Positions 10,183 through 54,850 of a stretch of DNA of 64,000 nt are shown piece by piece; positions within the stretch are counted from its first letter, which is position 1, and the number at the start of each line of letters is the position of its first letter. The stretch spans positions 35,470 through 99,469 of IMG/VR virus record IMGVR_UViG_3300045988_147330. One strand, written 5' to 3'. The stretch comes from a virus. Below the pieces are notes generated by a model. The model made no database searches. It was given only the letters and a program-made list of their open reading frames with translations, and was not told the origin of the DNA. The position numbers were made by a program, and so were the translations under genes.

Positions 10183-11427
10183 ATGGTTTATATAATTAAC
10201 AAACAAGGACAAGCACTTATGCCAACTGAAAGGTTTGGTAAAGTGAGAAGGCTATTAAAGAATGGTCTTTCCCACGTTGTGTGCCGTATCCCATTCACAA
10301 TTCAATTAGATTATGACACAACAGATTATACGCAGCCCATAAGTTTGGGTTTAGATGCTGGTAGCAAGCATATCGGCATATCAGCAACAACAAGTGAAAA
10401 GGAATTGTATGCAGCAGATGTGGAACTTAGAAATGACATTGTAGAGAAACTATCTACTCGTAGAGAACAAAGAAGAACTCGTAGGAGTAGGCTTCGTTAT
10501 CGCAAGGCGCGTTTCAATAATAGGGTTTCATCTAAACGCAAGGGTTGGCTAGCACCATCTATTGAAAACAAAATTCAAACTCATTTGACTGTTGTAGAAA
10601 AAATACATAAGTTCCTACCGATAACTAATATCGTAGTTGAAACTGCTTCCTTTGATATACAGAAGATTAAGAATCCAAGTATATCTGGAAGTGAATACCA
10701 ACAAGGAGAACAACTTGATTTCTTTAATGTGCGTGAGTATATTTTGTTTCGTGATGGTTATACTTGCCAACATTGTAAGGGTAAAAGTAAAGATAAGATC
10801 TTGAATGTGCATCACATTGAGAGTAGAAAGACGGGAGGGGATAGCCCAAATAACTTGATTACTCTTTGCGAAACTTGCCACAAGGCATATCATAGAGGTG
10901 AGTTTGAGTTAAATGTAAAACGTGGAAAGTCCTTTAGAGATGCCGCCTTTATGGGAATTATGCGATGGAGTCTCTATGATAGACTAAAGAATATCTATCC
11001 TAATGTAAATATGACTTTTGGTTATATCACGAAAAATACCCGTATCACTAACAATCTTCCTAAAGATCATTATGTTGATGCAAGGTGTATAAGTGGTAAT
11101 CCTGTGGCTAAACCTTTAGGTTATTATTTCTATCAGAAGAAAGTAAGATGCCAAAATAGGCAGATACACAAGGCTAATTTCTTAAAGGGTGGCAGGAAGA
11201 AACTCAATCAAGCACCATTCTTAGTGAAAGGTTTTAGGTTGTTTGACCTGGTTGAATACCAAAAGGATTTGTATTACATATTTGGAAGAAGAAGTAGTGG
11301 TTCCTTTGATATTAGGAAACTTGATGGAACTAAAGTGAATAAAGGTTCTATCAATTGCAAGTATTTGCGATTGATAGACAAAAGAAAAAGTATATTAACT
11401 GAAAAGAGAATGCAAGTAAATTTATGA
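10183..11427 (+). CDS. iscB: IscB-type RNA-guided nuclease (PLMP/RRXRR + split RuvC + HNH)
   Basis: GQALMPT (PLMP); LGLDAGSKHIGIS (RuvC-I); RREQRRTRRSRLRYRKARF (Arg-rich bridge helix); VVETASFD (RuvC-II); CQHC...VHHIESR..NNLITLCETCH (HNH); DHYVDARCI (RuvC-III); 414 aa. Confidence 0.8.
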   Translation: MVYIINKQGQALMPTERFGKVRRLLKNGLSHVVCRIPFTIQLDYDTTDYTQPISLGLDAGSKHIGISATTSEKELYAADVELRNDIVEKLSTRREQRRTRRSRLRYRKARFNNRVSSKRKGWLAPSIENKIQTHLTVVEKIHKFLPITNIVVETASFDIQKIKNPSISGSEYQQGEQLDFFNVREYILFRDGYTCQHCKGKSKDKILNVHHIESRKTGGDSPNNLITLCETCHKAYHRGEFELNVKRGKSFRDAAFMGIMRWSLYDRLKNIYPNVNMTFGYITKNTRITNNLPKDHYVDARCISGNPVAKPLGYYFYQKKVRCQNRQIHKANFLKGGRKKLNQAPFLVKGFRLFDLVEYQKDLYYIFGRRSSGSFDIRKLDGTKVNKGSINCKYLRLIDKRKSILTEKRMQVNL

Positions 11428-12501: not shown

Positions 12502-12600
12502 ATGCAAGACTATATTTCAGATTGGTTCATTCCTATGGATTTCGGTAATGATATGCCGGACGAAGAACCTAACGGTGAGGATAATTTTAATTTTGAATGA
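12502..12600 (+). CDS. micro-ORF (32 aa), paralog of 14397..14489
   Basis: MQDYISDWFIPMDFGND.PDEEP...DNFN conserved at both loci, each preceded by AGGAGG. Confidence 0.5.
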   Translation: MQDYISDWFIPMDFGNDMPDEEPNGEDNFNFE

Positions 12601-13487
12601 ATATGGAAAAGAAATTTGAGCTAACAGATAACTTTATAATCAATGCTTTTGGAGTGAAGTTATTCCAAATCAAGTGTACAAAGTCTTTCAAATATGCCAA
12701 GGAAGGTGATTTGGGAGGATATGTTGAGAAAGATGAGAACTTAGACCAAGAAAGCAATGCTTGGGTGTCCGGCAATGCTGAGGTGTCCGGCGATGCTTGG
12801 GTGTCCGGCAATGCTGAGGTGTCCGGCGATGCTCGGGTGTACGGCAATGCTCGGGTGTACGGCGATGCTCGGGTGTCCGGCGATGCTGAGGTGTCCGGCG
12901 ATGCTCGGGTGTACGGCAATGCTCGGGTGTACGGCGATGCTCGGGTGTACGGCGATGCTCGGGTGTACGGCAATGCTGAGGTGTCCGGCAATGCTGAGGT
13001 GTACGGCAATGCTGAGGTGTCCGGCAATGCTTGGGTGTCCGGCAATGCTCGGGTGTCCGGCAATGCTTGGGTGTCCGGCAATGCTGAGGTGTCCGGCGAT
13101 GCTCGGGTGTACGGCAATGCTCGGGTGTACGGCAATGCTGAGGTGTCCGGCAATGCTTGGGTGTACGGCGATGCTTGGGTGTACGGCAATGCTCGGGTGT
13201 ACGGCAATGCTGAGGTGTCCGGCAATGCTTGGGTGTCCGGCAATGCTGAGATAGACAACAATAATAAACATTGCGGATTTGACTGTTTCGGTTCTGCCAA
13301 CCGCCACACCCATGCCTACCTGACAAAAGAAAACAAAGTGGAAATAACATGCGGATGCTTCCGTGGGAGTATTGAAGAGTTTGAAAAGAGAGTGGAAGAA
13401 ACCCATTCGGGCACAATCTATGAGAAGCAGTATAAAGCCATCATCGATGTTATTAAAATTAAATTTGGGTTGACTGATTTGATATAG
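12597..13487 (+). CDS. hexapeptide-repeat protein, G[ND]A[EWR]V[SY] x ~27
   Basis: Unique N-terminal domain (FELTDNFIINAFGVKLFQIK...GDLGGYVEKDENL), ~165-aa perfect 6-aa repeat, unique Cys/His-containing C-terminal domain; ATGA overlap with upstream ORF. Confidence 0.7.
   Translation: MNMEKKFELTDNFIINAFGVKLFQIKCTKSFKYAKEGDLGGYVEKDENLDQESNAWVSGNAEVSGDAWVSGNAEVSGDARVYGNARVYGDARVSGDAEVSGDARVYGNARVYGDARVYGDARVYGNAEVSGNAEVYGNAEVSGNAWVSGNARVSGNAWVSGNAEVSGDARVYGNARVYGNAEVSGNAWVYGDAWVYGNARVYGNAEVSGNAWVSGNAEIDNNNKHCGFDCFGSANRHTHAYLTKENKVEITCGCFRGSIEEFEKRVEETHSGTIYEKQYKAIIDVIKIKFGLTDLI
12753..13250 (+). repeat. 18-bp tandem array ggc[a/g]atgct[tgg/gag/cgg]gtgt[c/a]c, ~27.6 units
   Basis: Direct reading; 13 of 18 positions invariant across all units, open in all six frames. 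Confidence 0.95.
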
Positions 13488-33741: not shown

Positions 33742-34401
33742 ATGAATACAAGAAAAAGAGAAATTCCTTCATTAGAAGGAGAAGTATGGAAAGACATAAA
33801 AGGATTTGAATCAATTTATTCAATTTCTAATTTCGGAAGAGTATATTTACATGGACGATATGTTTTTGCAGGAAAAAAAATTGGTAAAAGATGGCAACCA
33901 CCACAATTTATGACACCTCAAGTAAATCAAAGTGGATATTTAAATCTATTTTTACGAGATAATGGAAAAATAGAAAGAAAATATATTCATAGATTAGTAG
34001 CAGAGCATTTTATACCAAATATTTATAATTATCCATGTGTAGACCATAAAGATACAAACACTAAAAACAATCATGTATCAAATCTTAGATTCTGTACACA
34101 TAAAATGAATTCAAACAATCCAAATACTCTAAATAAGATGTCTAAATCTCATAAAAAAAGGGTATTTGAAAAAAGAATGCGTCATTCATCTGTTGTTGGA
34201 ATTAATATTAATGATTATAATGATGTCAGAACATATTTTTCAATGACAGATGCTAAAAATGATGGATTTAATCCAAATGGTATTAGTAAATGTTGTTTGA
34301 AAAGAATAAATCAACATCATGGATTTAAATGGATGTATCTAAATGAATACGAAACCCTTATCAATAAGTCAAAGAACAAATCTTCCAATGCAGAGATTTA
34401 A
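33742..34401 (+). CDS. free-standing HNH homing endonuclease (NUMOD4 + HNH_3)
   Basis: EVWKDIKGFESIYSISNFGRVY (NUMOD4); VDHKDTNTKNNHVSNLRFCTHKMN (HNH). Confidence 0.85.
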   Translation: MNTRKREIPSLEGEVWKDIKGFESIYSISNFGRVYLHGRYVFAGKKIGKRWQPPQFMTPQVNQSGYLNLFLRDNGKIERKYIHRLVAEHFIPNIYNYPCVDHKDTNTKNNHVSNLRFCTHKMNSNNPNTLNKMSKSHKKRVFEKRMRHSSVVGININDYNDVRTYFSMTDAKNDGFNPNGISKCCLKRINQHHGFKWMYLNEYETLINKSKNKSSNAEI

Positions 34402-35280
34402 TTAGCAACCACAACCATTGTTGCATCCATATCCATAAGCATAACCATCATTCAAGCCACCTTGACAACCAAACGGGTTGCAGGTTAAATAGGCTGGAAC
34501 TGGACATGGACGAAGCTGATTAACAAGATTCTGCGTCTGTTGCTGCGTTAAAGCTGACATCTGATAACCTTGTTTTTCATCGCGTAACTGCTGAATTTCA
34601 CGTTGCATTTCACGCATTTCAAGCTGACAGAACTTGTCATTTATAATTTGCGTTTGAGCATCAATCTTTGCCCCCAAGATGTTGAACTGAGTGTTTGCAT
34701 TGCTAGTCAGAGTGTTGGTCTGCTCTACAGTAGCCAATCGGCTATCGCATCCTTGACGTTCGATAGCGGTACGGATATCACAGCAGCAAGAAGCAAGCTG
34801 AGAACCTATAGCTGCGCTATTGGACTGAATTGAATTGATGATCTGTTGAGAAGAAAGACCTACCTGATTACCAACTTGCTGAATCTGTCCTTGAATCTGG
34901 CAGATAGCATTTTGCAACTGTTGAGTAGAGCAACTCAAAGAGCTAGCCAACTGATTGATAGCTGATCCGTTTCCTTGAATAGCATTCATCAACAACTCAC
35001 GTCCTGCATCATTATTCAATTGAGCAGGTATACCATTTGCTCCGTTGCCAAATCCATTTCCGAATCCGTTACCACCCCACAGGAAGAATAGCAGGATAAT
35101 CCAGATCCAATAGCAACCAGCACCACCCCAAGCATCTTGATTTTTGTTTCCATTCATCAAGGCTGCTACAAGATTGGGGTCTAATCCCTTGTTCTGCAAC
35201 AATGCAGGTATCATTGACATAAGTCCTGCACTTTCTCCAGCAGCAGGATTGTCGAACATAAAAATTTTGTCTGAACCCAT
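34402..35280 (-). CDS. single-pass membrane protein, Q/N-rich with Cys-rich tail
   Basis: TM GCYWIWIILLFFLWGG, GFGNGFGNG, long Q/N/S-rich region with CCC, C-terminal CNPFGCQGG..YGCNNGCGC; ATG 35280 preferred over the GTG at 35331. Confidence 0.55.
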   Translation of the reverse strand: MGSDKIFMFDNPAAGESAGLMSMIPALLQNKGLDPNLVAALMNGNKNQDAWGGAGCYWIWIILLFFLWGGNGFGNGFGNGANGIPAQLNNDAGRELLMNAIQGNGSAINQLASSLSCSTQQLQNAICQIQGQIQQVGNQVGLSSQQIINSIQSNSAAIGSQLASCCCDIRTAIERQGCDSRLATVEQTNTLTSNANTQFNILGAKIDAQTQIINDKFCQLEMREMQREIQQLRDEKQGYQMSALTQQQTQNLVNQLRPCPVPAYLTCNPFGCQGGLNDGYAYGYGCNNGCGC

Positions 35281-35372
35281 AATATTGTAATTTAATGTGT
35301 GTGTATTATAACTCCCGTAAAGACTGTGCACTCATCTTTACGAATGTAAATTTACAACATGGATTGCCTAAA

Positions 35373-35380: not shown

Positions 35381-35504
35381 AAAATTTCAAAGCGTAACTT
35401 ATTGTGTTTCAGATAGTTTAAACTTGTTAAAGTAAGTTATTTCCTTGTGGAATATTTTTTCTATTTGTATATTAGCGCAATAATTTAAAAAATGAGGATT
35501 TTTT

Positions 35505-36093: not shown

Positions 36094-36426
36094 TTACTCT
36101 ATAGATGATATATTTGCTGAACCATCAACATAAATGATATCTCCTGGCGTTACCGAGAAGTATTCTACTGTTCCTTGAGGAAGAAGCATTGATGAATTTT
36201 CCAACGCTCTACTTGAACGGGATTTAAATTCTTCTTTATATAGACTAATTCTACATCCTTCCATAGTAGCTATTCTTACAAGATTAGATGTAGCTGTATA
36301 CATATTATCTGCAATATCACTTGCAAGTGATATTCTTGCGGCTACAATACCTTTCAATGCTTCATCTTTTGAAGCGTTTGTTTGAGAAAAATATCCTCCT
36401 ATTTGTTGTCTATCATAGTTCTCCAT
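36094..36426 (-). CDS. hypothetical protein
   Basis: 110-aa ORF overlapping the upstream gene by 14 nt. Confidence 0.5.
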   Translation of the reverse strand: MENYDRQQIGGYFSQTNASKDEALKGIVAARISLASDIADNMYTATSNLVRIATMEGCRISLYKEEFKSRSSRALENSSMLLPQGTVEYFSVTPGDIIYVDGSANISSIE

Positions 36427-36769
36427 AGCCTTTTATAAATGATTTTTTTACACTTTCTGCAAATTCGTTTAATTTTACATAATCTGCGTCTAATTTATTT
36501 AATATACCTTTTCTTAGAGCAGCTTCTTCTTCACCATTAGGAAACTCGTCCTTTATAGCAGCATTTACAGTTTTGTCGTATGATACAGGGTTTTTCACAC
36601 GCTGTACATCAGCTACCCATTTCTTTACAAATTTTCCTTGTACGGGTTCACCAACACTGTCAATATATGGTTCGTCAACCTGTTTTATATTTAAATGTAC
36701 GTTACTGTACCCTGTCCCTAAATCCAAGATGAAGGGAGGTTTTTCGTCAAAAATCAATCCTCTTTCCAT
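36413..36769 (-). CDS. hypothetical protein closely spaced with the RT (3-nt gap)
   Basis: 118-aa ORF; its ATG (36769) lies 3 nt after the RT stop codon (36773-36775). Confidence 0.55.
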   Translation of the reverse strand: MERGLIFDEKPPFILDLGTGYSNVHLNIKQVDEPYIDSVGEPVQGKFVKKWVADVQRVKNPVSYDKTVNAAIKDEFPNGEEEAALRKGILNKLDADYVKLNEFAESVKKSFIKGYGEL

Positions 36770-36772
36770 ATT

Positions 36773-38095
36773 TTAAATATCTAATGTGCCATCAAAATAA
36801 TAACCTCTATTAAATTTTATAACAACATCTTCCAATGGGAGAAGGCTTCTGTCAACTTGTGAAAGAAATATACCTATGGATTCATATCCACCTTTTACAA
36901 AGCATTTTTCTCCTTTAAACAATATTTGCATTCTTACCCATGTGCTATTGTCTTTTTTAGTAGATGGTCTTACATCAAAATCAAGAATATCTATATATTC
37001 GTCAACGAGTTTGTCTATTTTTACATCTTTCCCATCAAACCTTCTTGATACTTTTATTCCTAAATCGCCAATTTTTGTCATGTGGCTATTATTTTTAGTT
37101 AAAATTTTATTAATCAAATTTCTAGAATCACAGTGCATCAACATTCCCATATAACTTGACACGGAGTTTGGATTGTTTCGTTTTAATGCAAAGTTTTTCT
37201 TTATTCTTTTTCTTATTTTAGTATGTCCTGGCATGAAAACAAATCCACCGAAATCTATTCCTTCTGATACAGGAAATATTCTGTAATTTTTCTTCATTTC
37301 CAGTTTCTTTTCATACCAAAGATAATTTCTTATTCTCCATAACCATTCATGCAACTGTTTTTTATCATGGGACAGTATTACCATATCATCAGCAAACCTA
37401 AAATAATGTTTTACTTTAAACTGCTCCTTTATGACGTGATCTAACGATCTCAACACTAAATGGCTTCCTATCTGTGCATCAGGATTTCCAATAGCTAAAC
37501 CCTTGTTGCTGTAATTAAGCGTATTCATAAGCCATAATGCATCCCTATCTTTCAGGTCTTTACTATACGCTTTTTTATAAACACTATGTCTTACAGAAGG
37601 ATAAAACTTCTTAATGTCCATTTTTAAGACATATATTTTCCCGTTTTTGTCCATTTCAAGCAACGTTCGCTTCATCTTCTTTACTAGAGAATGTTTCTTA
37701 ACTTTGCTTGTAATACCTCTTTTGGGCAAACAGTTGTACGAATCAAGTGTAAGACTTTTCGTCCATCTATCCATCATTGGTATCAAAAGACTATGTTGGA
37801 TAATCCTGTCAGGATAAAATGGTAATTTATGTATCTCCCTTGTTTTTCCTGCATCAGTCACTTTCTCCATTATCTCATACTCACTTACTTGGTATGATTT
37901 GTTTTTGAGCATTTGATAAACATTTTGATGGTATTCATCCTTATGTTTCTCATAATCTCTGACTCCCCTATGATTCCTTTTGCCTTTTTTCGCTTTTTTA
38001 GCAGCAGATATTATATTATCCATGCTGCATATTGTTTCAAAAATATTATTTACTCTTTTCATTTTTTCGTGCTTTTTCTTTGTCCGTTGAGCCAA
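36773..38095 (-). CDS. DGR-type reverse transcriptase
   Basis: RT motifs incl. FYPSV, LAIGNPDAQIGSH and catalytic FRFADDMVIL; sits directly 3' of a TR that matches a VR with A-specific mismatches. Confidence 0.9.
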   Translation of the reverse strand: MAQRTKKKHEKMKRVNNIFETICSMDNIISAAKKAKKGKRNHRGVRDYEKHKDEYHQNVYQMLKNKSYQVSEYEIMEKVTDAGKTREIHKLPFYPDRIIQHSLLIPMMDRWTKSLTLDSYNCLPKRGITSKVKKHSLVKKMKRTLLEMDKNGKIYVLKMDIKKFYPSVRHSVYKKAYSKDLKDRDALWLMNTLNYSNKGLAIGNPDAQIGSHLVLRSLDHVIKEQFKVKHYFRFADDMVILSHDKKQLHEWLWRIRNYLWYEKKLEMKKNYRIFPVSEGIDFGGFVFMPGHTKIRKRIKKNFALKRNNPNSVSSYMGMLMHCDSRNLINKILTKNNSHMTKIGDLGIKVSRRFDGKDVKIDKLVDEYIDILDFDVRPSTKKDNSTWVRMQILFKGEKCFVKGGYESIGIFLSQVDRSLLPLEDVVIKFNRGYYFDGTLDI

Positions 38096-38229
38096 AGCTA
38101 ACTAACTTTCCATACACCTACAAATGTGTATGTACTAATAAGTTCCCATTCTCTAATAATGGGATGTCTTGTCATTTTTCGTCTTCCTGACGAGGCTTCT
38201 GTATAGCAGTAATTTTTTTAAGCACGTTA

Positions 38230-38333
38230 GCTGCCACCGATGTTCGTGTTCGCGTTCGTAGGGGCATTGTTCGCATTACCATACCGCAAAGAACAATTGT
38301 CGTTGTTCGACTGACCACCAAAGTAAACACCAC
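38230..38333 (-). repeat. DGR template repeat (TR)
   Basis: 104-bp gapless match to 38512-38615; in the target frame it encodes nine AAC/AAT codons. Confidence 0.9.
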
Positions 38334-38419
38334 CAATCTACAGACCGCCTTTTTTCAACTAACCGCCTTTGACAGACTTATTTCACTTTGCTGACGCATT
38401 TGGTTAGATTTTTATTATG

Positions 38420-38427
38420 CAAACTTA
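38420..38427 (-). promoter_or_regulatory. -7 promoter motif TAAGTTTG upstream of TR-RT (minus strand)
   Basis: Reverse complement of caaactta, ~87 nt 5' of TR. Confidence 0.35.
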
Positions 38428-38465
38428 AACATTATTAATATAATTTGCAAGTTTTGGGATGAGGA

Positions 38466-38484
38466 TTTTTCACTTCGTGAAAAA
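38466..38484 (-). promoter_or_regulatory. hairpin immediately 3' of the target stop codon (candidate DGR target-recognition hairpin or terminator)
   Basis: 8-bp stem tttttcac/gtgaaaaa, 3-nt loop, 27 nt downstream of the VR end. Confidence 0.4.
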
Positions 38485-40416
38485 TTAGGCTTGGGTTATT
38501 GTACAACGGAAGCCGCCACCGATGCTCGTGAACGCGATCGTAGGGGCAATGTACGCATTACCAGACCGCAAAGAACAATAGTCGTAGTCCGACCGACCAC
38601 CAAAGTAAACACCACGTCTTCCAATTTTACCCGAACCTGCACCCCCTGTAAACCAGTTATAATGGCATTCTCCCGTATGAAGTCCACCACCTTGAGTTTT
38701 ACCTATAAGACAGTCTTTAAAATTTTCAAGCTGATATCCTTCGCCTTTGTTCTTAGTACCAATTAAATCATAGATATTTTCAAACCCATACGATTCACCA
38801 GGATTTTTATCGGTTGATACATTGTCAGTAGTCATATTGTTTACCGACTTAGTTTGATATATGTCAATAGATGTGGAATCATGCATAACACAGTCTATTC
38901 CACTATACCACATCCATATATCTCCCCATCCTGCAATTCTTCCCCGTATCAGAGGTTGGGCAAAGCATACTTCAACTTCCCTGTCTGTAACCAACGCAGA
39001 ATCGGGAATGCTCCATCCTGTTACGCTGATTGTGAAAAATTTAACAACAACACCGGACATTTCCCCCTCTGCAAGTCCATTATGACCTTGGAAATTAAAA
39101 TAACGATAAGTGGAACCATCATAGGTGAAATCTGTATTTTGTTCAATATTGTTTTCCTTTGCGTATGACATCGCCAACTGTGCTTCAAACATTTTCAGTT
39201 TAGGACGATAATTATTGATTACTTGATCAAAATTATAAGTAGTTCCTGTTTCAGAAGCCTTGAAGCCAGCTCCATTTATTTTATAATAAACGTATGTCTG
39301 ATTATCATTCTTTTTAAATCTTATTCCTGTCATTTTACCCCAGCTTGAAGCATCAGGCGCAGAATCATTAGATGATATACCTTTTCCACATACAGATTGA
39401 GAATGAACATCTTTCGTTCTAAACTTTATAAACAAAAGGGTACACCACACATCCAAGTCAAATGCAAAAGCATTTGCGTATGGTAAATTAGATGATGTGT
39501 CTGTATTTTTATTTCTTGCATATTGTTCATAGTTAAAGCGTGAAATATTTGTTGTAGGCCATCCACCTGTAGTCATGATGTTTACGCCCAACATTCCTGC
39601 TCCAGTAGTACCCATAATGGTATTATCTCTAATTGATCTCTGTTTGTTATCTTTTATTACTGAATATCCGATACACACAGCAAATGGAGCTACAAAGTCG
39701 GCTGTATCACCGCCATAAGTAAATGGTATATCTCCAACAATCCTTCTTTCATAAGTATCATCAGTTCCTCCATTAATTACCCAAAACGGCTTGGTATTTA
39801 CTAACATAACATCAGTGCCATCGTCTACTACATCAGTGCCATCTATAATAATATTTGAAGGTGTTCCGTCAGCCATTTTAAATAGATTGGTTTGGTCGAA
39901 ATATCCTACGACTTTTCCGTCCTTTACTTTAGCCAGGCGAAATGCATTCAATATAGGATGAGATACCTTAAATTCCTCTTTTCCTATCCATGTCTGATAG
40001 ACAGGATCACTTTGCCCACGAGACATTTCTACACCATATACATTTCCTTGTTGTTGCTTTAATGAATCTAGAAATTGTTTGTCTATATCGGTAAAATCAT
40101 TTGTAGACAATGATTTGCCTTCCACTTTATCCACCTTTTTATCTAAGGCTGTCTTTTGCGGATCAGATACAGGCTTTTCCGCGTCAGATGTATTGTCTAC
40201 TTTAGAAAGTCCAATGTTTTCTTTTGTTATATTGACGTTCCCTTTCCTATATGAACTCTCATTGTTACCTTTTACACCTGTTACCATACCTTCTCTTATC
40301 TGAGATATAGTGACCGACTTGTTCTTCTTCGGTTCATCTGTAACGCATGGTATTATCTCTGTACCCGTAACGGTTTCAACGGGAGTCATTTCCGAAATTT
40401 TAAGATTTTCTTCCAT
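38485..40416 (-). CDS. DGR target: tail fibre / receptor-binding protein with C-terminal variable (CLec-like) region
   Basis: N-terminal fibre motif GNVNITKENIGLSKVDNTSDAEKPVS; C-terminus GVYFGG....C.L..GNA..AP........GGGFRC overlaps VR. Confidence 0.85.
   Translation of the reverse strand: MEENLKISEMTPVETVTGTEIIPCVTDEPKKNKSVTISQIREGMVTGVKGNNESSYRKGNVNITKENIGLSKVDNTSDAEKPVSDPQKTALDKKVDKVEGKSLSTNDFTDIDKQFLDSLKQQQGNVYGVEMSRGQSDPVYQTWIGKEEFKVSHPILNAFRLAKVKDGKVVGYFDQTNLFKMADGTPSNIIIDGTDVVDDGTDVMLVNTKPFWVINGGTDDTYERRIVGDIPFTYGGDTADFVAPFAVCIGYSVIKDNKQRSIRDNTIMGTTGAGMLGVNIMTTGGWPTTNISRFNYEQYARNKNTDTSSNLPYANAFAFDLDVWCTLLFIKFRTKDVHSQSVCGKGISSNDSAPDASSWGKMTGIRFKKNDNQTYVYYKINGAGFKASETGTTYNFDQVINNYRPKLKMFEAQLAMSYAKENNIEQNTDFTYDGSTYRYFNFQGHNGLAEGEMSGVVVKFFTISVTGWSIPDSALVTDREVEVCFAQPLIRGRIAGWGDIWMWYSGIDCVMHDSTSIDIYQTKSVNNMTTDNVSTDKNPGESYGFENIYDLIGTKNKGEGYQLENFKDCLIGKTQGGGLHTGECHYNWFTGGAGSGKIGRRGVYFGGRSDYDYCSLRSGNAYIAPTIAFTSIGGGFRCTITQA
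38512..38615 (-). repeat. DGR variable repeat (VR)
   Basis: 12 mismatches to TR, all at TR plus-strand T = coding-strand A; ends 8 codons before the stop. Confidence 0.9.
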
Positions 40417-42435: not shown

Positions 42436-42480
42436 GCATAAAATTCGTTAAACAATTTGGTTATGAGCAGTTTTGTGCAG

Positions 42481-42488
42481 TATATTTG
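42481..42488 (+). promoter_or_regulatory. -7 promoter motif TATATTTG (plus strand, divergent)
   Basis: 26 nt upstream of ATG 42514. Confidence 0.4.
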
Positions 42489-42513
42489 CTTAAAAATAAA
42501 AAATATAATATCA

Positions 42514-42882
42514 ATGAATGTATTAAGTTTATGTGATGGTATAGCCTGCGGTAGAATTGCTCTTGAACGAGCAGGGATAAAGGTGAATAAGTATTACGCA
42601 AGCGAGATAAATGAACCGTCTATTAAGGTGGCATTAGACAATTATCCTGATATCATAGAGTTAGGTGATATCAGGAATTGGAAAGAATGGAATATAGAAT
42701 GGAAAGATATTGATCTGTTGATTGGAGGTACACCATGCCAGGATTTCTCCCGACTTGGAAAGGAGAAGCTAAACTTTGATGGTGAACGTTCTGGGCTGTT
42801 CTTTCAATATGTGAACATACTTAATCATATAAAACAGTTTAATCCAAATGTAAAATTTAGGCAAATGCGGCTATGTGTATAA
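42514..42882 (+). pseudogene. 3'-truncated C5 cytosine DNA methyltransferase
   Basis: Motif I LSLCDGIACG and motif IV GGTPCQDFS are present. The ORF ends right after NPNVKF, where motif ENV is expected. No downstream continuation was found. Confidence 0.7.
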
Positions 42883-43116
42883 AGGATTGAAACTTAGCGA
42901 GCGTAGTTGGACTTGTCCGGAATGTGGTACACACCACGACCGGGACTTCAACGCAGCTTGTAATATCAAGAAATTTGGCTTGAAAGCCCTACCCACGGAG
43001 CGAGGGAAAGTCAAGCCTGTGGACTGCCCAACGGTGGATGAACGACCTCGTGTCCTAAAAAGCTGCGGCAGGAAGAAGCAGGAAAAAACTCATGCCTTTA
43101 GGCGTGGGGAGTTCAC
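42860..43116 (+). pseudogene. tnpB: TnpB 3' fragment (second family) with omega-RNA-like tail
   Basis: [36 protein letters not shown] (zinc finger + RuvC-III), then a structured non-coding-looking tail with terminal hairpin catgcc-ttta-ggcgtg ending gagttcac. Confidence 0.7.
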
Positions 43117-43290
43117 ATGATAAAGTTATGGAGCTTACCGAGCATCCATGTGGAAGTAATGCAGACTACAGAAGTATTACTTTTTACTGTGATGACTGCC
43201 CTATAGGGCGTTTTGGGACAAATATGTGTACAAAAGAACAACAATATTCTAAATAATCTTCAAAACCGAACAGAAATGTAATATAAGAAA

Positions 43291-53757: not shown

Positions 53758-54258
53758 TTAAATCGTTGGTTGATCAATACTGAATTTTAATGAAAATGTA
53801 TAAGCAGACACAAGTTTATCTGGATTTTGTATATCCTGAACATCTTGATAGCTTAATTTAGCTCCTGTTTCAAAACCCGTACATCTTATCACTTGCTTTG
53901 CCGATTCTCCCCATATTTCATTCCAAATAGAAAAGGATGATGTTCCATATGGCATACCAACAGATTCAGGTATGACATTGGTTATATATGAATAAAATGA
54001 GCGTATATTTGTCTTTACTGTATTAACATCACCCATAGCGGCAAATTTAATACTTCCTTCTGTAGGCTGATATACGGGTGTGACAGGCTCATATACCTTT
54101 TGTCCGTTCTTGTCATACCAATTTTCGACATACGCTTCTTTCTTTGTAGGTAAGTCCCATAAGCCTTTGCTTTCAAGTATATACAGCTTGTATGTAGCAT
54201 ATAAATCTTTTGCTGCATCACTTCCTTTCTTGATAAAATATTTAGCTATAGCCATCAT
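53758..54258 (-). CDS. tail protein (hypothetical), immediately upstream of the fibre gene
   Basis: Start set at ATGATG (MMAIAKYF) at 54258; the track's longer N-terminus (to 54306) runs into the repeat element. Confidence 0.55.
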   Translation of the reverse strand: MMAIAKYFIKKGSDAAKDLYATYKLYILESKGLWDLPTKKEAYVENWYDKNGQKVYEPVTPVYQPTEGSIKFAAMGDVNTVKTNIRSFYSYITNVIPESVGMPYGTSSFSIWNEIWGESAKQVIRCTGFETGAKLSYQDVQDIQNPDKLVSAYTFSLKFSIDQPTI

Positions 54259-54278
54259 TGTACTTTTAATTATTGCAA

Positions 54279-54664
54279 AAGGTATTAAGGAACAAATTGA
54301 CACCATTACAAATCGTTATAACAAATGGTTATACTTGTTCCATATTTCAAGTTGCTAAGATAGCTAGAAAAATCAAAATAACAAAAAGGTAACATATTTA
54401 TAATATATTAACACGTGTTTTTTTCTATTGTAATAACAATATAATATATTTGCATTGTCAATAATAGGAGGATATTATAGCGAATATGCAATTAGTTTAT
54501 AAATTTGACATCAATCATTCTGACAGGCTTTGCGCTATCTGCCGTGTTACGAACAATCAAAAGTATTCGGTGATTCTTTTATGATAGCCGATAGTGGGCG
54601 TTGGTATCGCCCTGAACGGATTAACGTTCTAAAATGTTTGTGAATACATGTACATTAATACCTT
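54279..54664 (+). repeat. repeat copy 3: promoter block + TnpB 3'-end/right-end-like module
   Basis: See copy 1; contains -7 motif TATATTTG at 54445-54452. Confidence 0.85.
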
Positions 54665-54735: not shown

Positions 54736-54807
54736 GGTGCTTTGGATGAGCGGTTTAGTCAACAGTCTGCAAAACTGATAACGGCGGTTCGATTCCGCCA
54801 AGCACCT
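54736..54807 (+). tRNA. tRNA-Cys (anticodon GCA)
   Basis: Hand fold: acceptor GGTGCTT/AAGCACC, T-arm GGCGG-TTCGATT-CCGCC, anticodon loop CT-GCA-AA, discriminator U; no encoded CCA. Confidence 0.85.
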
Positions 54808-54850
54808 CTTGTTCTTGTATTTCAAATTTTTGTTTTTTTGTTCATAATAA

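Follow-up and report, generated by a model that had tools for sequence, protein, structure and literature searches.

How can a diversity-generating retroelement (DGR) carry out mutagenic retrohoming when the accessory gene avd is missing? The question is raised by a locus on the minus strand of a 64,000-nucleotide (nt) stretch of viral DNA, positions 35,470 to 99,469 of IMG/VR record IMGVR_UViG_3300045988_147330 (this whole stretch is called the window below), in which a target gene carrying a variable repeat (VR), a template repeat (TR) and the gene for a reverse transcriptase (RT) follow one another. Avd is present in ~74% of DGRs and is not universal. About a quarter of DGRs are without Avd and must work differently (Wu et al., 2018; PMC5758913), and we found no published account of an Avd-independent mechanism in the literature. 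The window comes from a large tailed uncultivated gut phage of ~95 kb with a tape-measure protein and an integrase-like gene. We are highly confident that the locus is a complete, Avd-less target-TR-RT DGR lying in the tail module of this phage and resembling Architecture A1 / lineage 3 of Wu. As a DGR it is ordinary, such elements being common on gut phage tail fibres and the architecture already catalogued. What the locus offers is a well-sampled natural series of active diversification, an exact transfer boundary and repeated cassette loss and decay, together with two testable parts for Avd-independent retrohoming: a small conserved protein, here fused to the RT, and a covarying structured RNA.

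Coordinates are window positions, and repeat columns are numbered along the 110-nt repeat on the coding (minus) strand. The repeats and the gene that carries the VR are:

38485-40416, minus strand: target gene, encoding a likely tail-fibre / receptor-binding protein of 643 amino acids, with the VR at its C-terminus.
38506-38615, minus strand: VR, 110 nt, coding for target residues ~601-637, a gapless match to the TR.
38523-38606, minus strand: mutagenised tract of the VR (repeat columns 9-92), where 11 of 25 TR adenines are substituted in the window genome.
38224-38333, minus strand: TR, non-coding, 110 nt including 28 adenines.

On the minus strand the target open reading frame (ORF; 40416-38485) is followed by a gap of 172 nt, the TR, a spacer of 161 nt and the RT gene; the ORFs and repeats bear out the order of target with VR, TR and RT given in an initial annotation of this DNA. 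A repeat finder returned a single direct repeat of 110 nt (38224-38333 and 38506-38615), and no further VR was found anywhere in the window. The two copies align without gaps, and 14 of their 14 mismatches fall at TR adenines. The initial annotation had reported a shorter pair (TR 38230-38333, VR 38512-38615), gapless over 104 nt with 12 mismatches, each a coding-strand A in the TR and together affecting 12 of 26 TR adenines; these mismatches lie at exactly the positions it listed, but the repeat is really 6 nt longer, which adds A-only mismatches at 38228 and 38227. Its peptide readings of both repeats are likewise correct: in the target frame the TR has nine AAC/AAT codons, and it ends with an in-frame TAA inside IMH*, the TR counterpart of the initiation of mutagenic homing (IMH) sequence. 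Under a hypergeometric model, mismatches would all land on A by chance with a probability of 5.6e-9 (12 mismatches, 104 nt) or 2.2e-10 (14 mismatches, 110 nt).

The same pattern is found beyond the window. There are at least 117 related viral contigs (up to 98 kb), of which the best 80 were examined, with VRs located by an A-masked scan, a seed-based repeat finder having missed heavily diversified VRs. TR adenines account for 1008 of the 1066 TR/VR mismatches in the 60 related contigs with both repeats, so that A-specificity, which the initial annotation had named as the key test, is absolute in the window and holds across these relatives; the same 60 loci carry 15 distinct TRs against 56 distinct VRs. 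Column by column, VR variation is limited to TR-A columns between 9 and 92 (57+18 related VRs). Where the TR is polymorphic at non-adenine columns (59, 60, 70 and 79) the same allele split is seen in the VRs of the same genomes, and non-A mismatches between TR and VR are rare at any one locus, from which it follows that information flows from TR to VR. Among 63 target proteins of 96-98% identity (62 besides that of the window), many-allele sites occur only at residues 604-632; these hypervariable sites lie at TR-adenine codons and show up to 16 different residues each. All 18 VR differences between the window and its closest relative are in TR-A columns. Substitutions affect 44% of the mutable adenines in the window, with a family mean of 54%, compared with ~50% of adenines mutated in published DGRs (bioRxiv 10.1101/2024.11.15.621889). 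The VR heterogeneity that had been proposed as a check is thus present, limited to TR-adenine positions in the contigs and the 63 proteins, as diversity between samples and not within one population. Because near-identical targets from many samples carry different VRs, the lineage has diversified very recently, and we take these comparisons to indicate that the element is active in this lineage.

The point at which transfer stops can be read from the 3' end of the VR, beyond which lies a hairpin:

38506-38522, minus strand: IMH-like 3' end of the VR, TCGGTGGCGGCTTCCGT, G+C-rich and coding for ...GGGFR, with three never-varying differences from the TR at adenine positions.
38465-38485, minus strand: conserved hairpin beginning at the target stop codon, ATTTTTCAC-GAA-GTGAAAAAT.

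At columns 101, 105 and 106 (window 38232, 38228 and 38227) A is present in all TRs, and G, T and T/C, respectively, are fixed in 75 related VRs, in which the last variable column is 92. Since column 101 is A in every TR and fixed otherwise in all 75 VRs, the mismatch at 38232 does not derive from mutagenesis; of the 12 mismatches originally read in that way, the other 11 stand. On the evidence of the aligned repeats, all three positions are fixed differences between IMH and IMH* and not mutagenesis products. Two of the three fixed 3' TR adenines make the in-frame TAA, and all three are never transferred. The contrast between VR CGGCTTCC and TR CAGCT(T/A)AC is found again in most of the distant lineages (37-57% RT identity to the window), with loci L090-092 being without the first of the three differences. 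This asymmetry is shared with the prototype, the DGR of Bordetella phage BPP-1 (mtd-avd-TR-brt), as are a hairpin past the VR and A-specific TR-to-VR transfer into the C-terminal tip of a tail-fibre protein. Folded as DNA, the stop-codon hairpin of the window has an energy of -6.2 kcal/mol (z = -4.4), and across relatives its stem is nearly invariant and its loop variable. It is possibly a target-site hairpin or cruciform, or else a terminator, and it is retained also in relatives where the TR-RT cassette is absent.

Does the RT belong with such a system? Its parts are:

36773-38095, minus strand: RT ORF, read from TTG; homologues begin at ATG 38062 (MKRVNN...), giving 429 amino acids.
37076-38062, minus strand: RT core, residues 1 to ~329, with motif A D149, FADD at 223-226 and motif 4 IGNPDAQ.

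The initial annotation had placed the RT at 38095 to 36773, and the ORF is as described but not its start, which homologues place at 38062. The protein matches Pfam RVT_1 and phrog_1423 (PHROGs, E 4e-78), and among PDB sequences it matches the Bordetella RT of BPP-1 (bRT, 8ub7), its closest solved homologue, at E 2.5e-22, with weaker matches to a group II RT (E 3e-6) and to chains deposited as retron-type RT (2e-5). Its AlphaFold model (pLDDT 93) aligns with bRT in Foldseek at TM 0.86 (E 5e-20), and the catalytic motifs DIKKF and FADD are intact. Judged by what it most resembles in sequence and in structure, the RT is of the DGR class, as had been claimed, and does not go with the retron or group II RTs. 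One might still suppose that the repeats arose by duplication with ordinary divergence or gene conversion next to the RT of a retron, a group II intron or a defence system, and NCBIfam does return weak sub-threshold matches to group II, retron and DRT models, as for any RT. We find this barely credible, given an A-only pattern with a chance of ~2e-10 that is repeated independently in 60 loci, best matches of the RT to DGR RTs, no retron or group II intron RNA found in the window by Rfam, and TR and RT that are gained or lost together. A point against the DGR assignment is motif 4, which is canonically [ILV]GxxxSQ in DGR RTs and retains SQ in 108 of 120 homologues, whereas the window has IGNPDAQ (Ser to Ala). 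This also separates it from BPP-1. Identity to bRT is only ~23%. AQ is found in all 57 family RTs carrying motif 4, and as this family has hypervariable VRs we regard it as a tolerated variant and not as disqualifying.

In its layout, target-VR(IMH)-TR(IMH*)-RT with no avd, the element is like those of Wu A1 / lineage 3, for example that of crAssphage LMMB (PMC5758913, PMC7290462), which was assigned to lineage 3 by its authors (PMC7290462); also like them are the association with Bacteroidota and their phages, the tail-fibre target and the frequency of incomplete cassettes among relatives. RT identity is 34-39% to crAss-like DGR RTs and 34% to the crAssphage LMMB RT. The element is an Avd-less, lineage-3-like DGR, the evidence for lineage 3 itself being indirect. 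The target shares its fold with tail fibres of crAss-like phages, but at ~95 kb and with a tape-measure protein the window phage falls outside the crAss-like group, and its RT and target are divergent. A further comparison is phage csAssE-Sib (GenBank OR575929, with VR, IMH, TR and IMH* annotated), also from the human gut, for which we found no paper in the literature. It has the same cassette and a long RT of 465 amino acids, which aligns with the window RT from end to end, including the C-terminal domain, at 28% identity, and its target, which bears the annotation of putative tail fibre, shows homology across residues 230-642 (27% identity). It differs in having a distant, 151-kb genome and a spacer of 92 nt that gives no match to our RNA model (see below) at E up to 0.01.

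What, if anything, stands in for Avd? The VR-TR gap (172 nt) and the TR-RT spacer (161 nt) contain no ORF at all, and the target-TR-RT order on one strand is accompanied by no avd, HRDC, MSL or CH1 gene. The flanking small ORFs gave no match to an Avd family in Pfam, NCBIfam or PHROGs, although not every window ORF was scanned; o118, o110 and o122 match nothing in these three collections, and we therefore consider that no Avd is hidden there. The candidate that remains is part of the RT itself:

36773-37075, minus strand: C-terminal RT domain of ~100 amino acids, residues ~330-429, beta-rich with one helix, pI 5.4.

This extension is kept in long-RT homologues down to 36% identity. Short-RT relatives in Bacteroidota genomes have instead a separate ORF of 96-100 amino acids beginning at or overlapping the RT stop, and the extension aligns with the standalone 96-amino-acid ORF after the Pedobacter arcticus RT (hhalign 99.4% probability, E 5e-21) and with the standalone form in BLASTP (2e-12). 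In a survey with a hidden Markov model of the domain, 80 Bacteroidota genome loci (L170-L249) had it as a separate ORF in 62 cases, fused in 10 and not at all in six, with two ending too early; among 70 loci of a distant short-RT clade (L093-L162) it was never separate or fused, being not found in 65, with five ending too early. The extension has no relative in Pfam, NCBIfam or PDB (the last searched by profile), and its standalone forms match phrog_19665 only, to which no function is assigned. On these comparisons the extension is a small gene joined to that of the RT, one which most related Bacteroidota DGRs carry on its own just after the RT. C-terminal extensions, unexplained and without a motif, occur in ~20% of DGR RTs, and no accessory gene is reported for this architecture (PMC5758913). 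We had considered Wu's CH1 and dropped it, because the CH1 gene product is 160-169 amino acids long (PMC5758913) and the extension ~100.

The fused domain probably has one of the functions that Avd performs for Bordetella. It is against this that the domain is acidic to neutral (pI 5.4), unlike the basic Avd, and for that reason functional equivalence is a guess. BPP-1 differs from the window element in the presence of avd and in an RT without the extra ~100-amino-acid domain. We put forward tentatively, as a serious possibility in which we fall somewhat short of believing, that the fused domain is an undescribed accessory factor replacing Avd in lineage-3-type DGRs and that the window element is a minimal DGR of one protein and one RNA. 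If this were true, it would show in concrete terms by what means mutagenic retrohoming proceeds without Avd. A compact single-ORF DGR could also serve engineered targeted mutagenesis.

A second small protein lies directly after the RT:

36413-36769, minus strand: o118, encoding a small acidic protein and conserved as a partner of the target.

It is retained beside the target in relatives without TR-RT; other lineages have a homologue of it between target and TR (E 3e-14), and L164 has one following the RT (58% identity). Since it is kept in cassette-less relatives and its homologue lies elsewhere between target and TR, o118 appears to be a partner of the target and is probably outside the DGR machinery. 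The ORF of 105-111 amino acids between target and TR in other lineages was considered as an Avd substitute and dropped, being an acidic o118 homologue that is kept in DGR-less phages.

Some short-RT Bacteroidota DGR loci (L194, L205, L219, L181, L220, L187 and L227, at ~1900-2790) have two tandem small ORFs of 125-176 amino acids upstream of the RT, which share ...KY(F/Y)PWF...G(V/S)GFS...VGSRL(C/V)F... and are probably paired small targets, of a type differing from the tail fibre of the window.

The other testable part is the non-coding DNA around the TR, whose elements are:

38420-38450, minus strand: Bacteroidota-type promoter-like element (TTG, 20 nt, TAAGTTTG), upstream of the TR.
38339-38350, minus strand: 5' strand of a predicted long-range duplex enclosing the TR, AGGC-GG-TCTGTA, pairing with 38194-38203.
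38063-38223, minus strand: TR-RT spacer, 161 nt, predicted to form a structured non-coding RNA as a counterpart of the Bordetella Sp region.
Spacer, first part, minus strand: A-rich linker; TACAGAAGCC at 38194-38203, the 3' strand of the enclosing duplex; hairpin 1 at 38180-38192.
Spacer, middle part, minus strand: conserved A-rich single strand GAAAAAUGACAAGACA; hairpin 2 at 38144-38164.
Spacer, last part, minus strand: helix around hairpin 3 at ~38098-38142; GGCUCAACGG at 38084-38093.

This non-coding DNA is almost invariant in 37 distinct family sequences. The promoter-like element, named for its likeness to the Bacteroidota promoter consensus, is nearly invariant in the same set and is retained in cassette-less relatives; its promoter function and a transcription start there are putative. 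The spacer folds with a better minimum free energy than shuffled sequences (z = -3.2). For comparison we used long-RT lineages whose RTs are 37-58% identical to that of the window; A-specific TR/VR pairs are present in all these lineages. RNAalifold on 12 lineages gave 25 consensus pairs, 19 of them with compensatory changes, and standard pairing was present in 95% of cells compared with 73% in shuffles (0 of 500 came up to 95%) and no more than 45% in slid controls. In 13 of 13 lineages the TR 5' flank forms a helix with the part of the spacer immediately 5' of hairpin 1, using at least eight different helix sequences, and the enclosing duplex is bordered by GGY...GVCC, followed by hairpin 1 and GAAAAAUGACARACAAG. 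A covariance model matches the window at 38078-38200. Loci on which it was not trained, from assemblies of Phocaeicola, Prevotellaceae, Bacteroides and Prevotella, score 54-113 bits, and its weak matches are nearly always directly upstream of an RT start; Rfam has no family matching the spacer. This covariation argues strongly that the spacer is a structured RNA.

Like the Bordetella cPRT Stop, the window has a TR-enclosing duplex, a short stem-loop and an A-rich strand. The Avd-binding stem-loop of the Bordetella RNA (bioRxiv 10.1101/2023.10.23.563531, where the conservation survey covers Avd-containing DGRs only) has no counterpart in the window spacer; at its position in BPP-1, between the TR end and the duplex strand, the window has an A-rich linker of ~20 nt with no predicted helix. 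The predicted RNA therefore retains the Bordetella-type enclosing duplex and is without the stem-loop that binds Avd.

Taken together, these parts suggest how the element might work. The promoter upstream of the TR would drive a transcript over the TR and the downstream spacer, probably including the RT gene, and pairing of the sequences flanking the TR would present it as a closed loop. The spacer hairpins and A-rich strand would bind the RT, which would copy the TR to cDNA, misincorporating opposite adenines. The cDNA would then replace the VR (38523-38606) as far as a boundary in the G+C-rich IMH, so that ~16 codons at the tail-fibre tip (residues 604-632) would be re-randomised and receptor specificity changed. 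In this scheme we infer, and do not observe, the priming site, the role of the fused domain, that of the hairpin and the receptor-binding function. A candidate template-primer duplex, formed by TR GGCAGC and spacer ACUGCU 2 nt before the duplex strand, was folded in the window, L002 and L082; in L164 the same motif can be picked out by eye, and the fold chose another pairing. We found no template-primer duplex that is consistent across lineages, which is a weakness of the scheme. Duplex folding of whole segments gave long spurious pairings and was abandoned, only restricted segments being informative, and even these gave no general primer duplex.

Is the element in the window itself still at work? 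Several observations weigh against it. One assembled sequence cannot show present diversification in the window genome, and 16 syntenic relatives are without the TR-RT cassette. Moreover, in the closest relative (L001, target 97% identical) the RT is deleted with only residues 369-429 left (L001:7083-7540), and there is a small deletion in the upstream duplex strand. The L001 TR differs from that of the window at columns 77, 83, 90 and 101, all adenines, and has at each the base of L001's own VR, which suggests VR-to-TR conversion, or homing into the TR, in its 3' part. Since L001 has lost the RT and 16 syntenic relatives have no cassette, the element is evidently dispensable and often decaying. 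It could then be that the window element is intact but silent, its VR a frozen record and the DGR a fossil heading for loss. L001 keeps an A-specific VR/TR pattern in spite of its RT deletion and partly VR-converted TR, 18 related loci have a diversified-looking VR with no TR detected (the cassette being absent in 16, where the downstream region is present), and DGR activity in Bacteroides varies widely (bioRxiv 10.1101/2024.11.15.621889). We nevertheless consider this unlikely, as the window RT ORF is full length with its catalytic motifs present, the TR, IMH, flanking duplex and spacer RNA fit the consensus of the active family, and near-identical targets in many samples have different VRs. 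We therefore retain the reading of a complete DGR in a lineage that appears to be actively diversifying.

In some relatives without TR-RT the site of the cassette, from the promoter-like element to o118, is taken by a 771-nt insert encoding a NUMOD4-HNH-AP2 homing endonuclease (L015:7030-7800, with L044-L046, L052, L062, L065 and L072 alike), and other cassette-less relatives run straight to o118 after 182 nt. This site looks like a hotspot for mobile cassettes. In L041 (7070-7330) an insertion of ~250 nt, bounded by the inverted repeats GGCATTAATG...CATTAATGCC and perhaps a miniature mobile element, has split the promoter-like element, with ATTAAT duplicated.

What does the element diversify? 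In the AlphaFold model of the target (overall pLDDT 79.7) residues 1-122 are predicted to be disordered and residues 123-643 form a confidently predicted folded body. The initial annotation had proposed a C-type-lectin-like (CLec) C-terminus. In its favour, the top five Foldseek matches in PDB are all CLec-fold DGR variable proteins, namely Mtd and TaqVP of Thermus aquaticus (5VF4), the latter being the closest among solved structures (E 3.8e-3, probability 0.96), and the C-terminal pattern ...RRGVYFGG...CSLR...GGGFRC resembles that of CLec-type VRs. Against it, TM scores are low (0.1-0.4, with 0.26-0.41 for TaqVP) at E 3.8e-3, identity to TaqVP is ~10% with no match at the sequence level, and the whole protein has no sequence match in Pfam or PDB, nor has a profile of its C-terminal domain a significant one in PDB. 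On these weak fold scores a CLec fold is probable, on a TaqVP-like body of a 643-amino-acid protein which, unlike the BPP-1 target, does not have the Mtd architecture. The variable proteins of Bacteroides prophage DGRs are also reported to be most like TaqVP (bioRxiv 10.1101/2024.11.15.621889).

The target could also be some other protein, of the virion or not, and its diversification unconnected with host range: it has no sequence match in Pfam or PDB, and PHROG tail-fibre families match residues 42-136 only, a short N-terminal motif. This seems to us quite improbable, more so than a silent element. Its best match among viral models (BFVD) is a 'Receptor binding complex' protein with 71% identity, followed by tail-fibre and tail-collar-fibre proteins of crAss-like phages (E ~1e-20), of which at least two, cr7_1 and cr55_1, also encode DGR-type RTs; the homologue in csAssE-Sib is annotated as a putative tail fibre; and the gene lies in a minus-strand block, preceded on its own strand by genes for a 578-amino-acid protein, a 2575-amino-acid protein with a tail-fibre PHROG segment and a 2058-amino-acid tape-measure-like protein. 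The earlier identification of the target as a tail fibre is thus upheld, and a tail-fibre or receptor-binding protein is the likely reading from these fold matches.

Searching GenBank phages with the DNA gave only a 48-nt match and no close relative of this phage. A scan of a genome collection found no prophage copy of the target, and cluster names gave no host. As cellular RT homologues are almost all from Bacteroidota and the promoter-like motif is of Bacteroidota type, the host is probably a member of the Bacteroidota, with Bacteroides and Phocaeicola as candidates.

Elsewhere in the window, a C-5 cytosine DNA methylase ORF (42457-43120, plus strand) ends after the first third of the Pfam domain (1-102 of 324) and is directly followed by an 81-amino-acid ORF with a TnpB/Cas12f-like zinc-ribbon (TNB) domain, which suggests that a TnpB-family remnant has interrupted the methylase gene. 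There are two HNH homing-endonuclease genes, at 33742-34401 (plus strand, NUMOD4 and HNH_3, on the strand opposite to the adjoining structural genes) and 10183-11427 (plus strand, matching phrog_119). At 34402-35331 (minus strand) a protein of 309 amino acids, with a high content of Gly, Gln, Asn and Cys and ...GYGCNNGCGC at its end, matches phrog_16490 (function not assigned) at E 6e-57 and is 79-94% conserved in relatives carrying it. The stretch of highest G+C (0.41), at 12597-13487, has ORFs overlapping on both strands, the plus-strand one encoding a YdcK-type beta-solenoid / bactofilin-repeat protein of 296 amino acids. Finally, a tRNA-Cys (GCA) gene lies at 54736-54808 (plus strand) between an ORF of 182 amino acids (53758-54306, minus strand) and the 2058-amino-acid tape-measure-like ORF, on the strand opposite to these flanking minus-strand genes.

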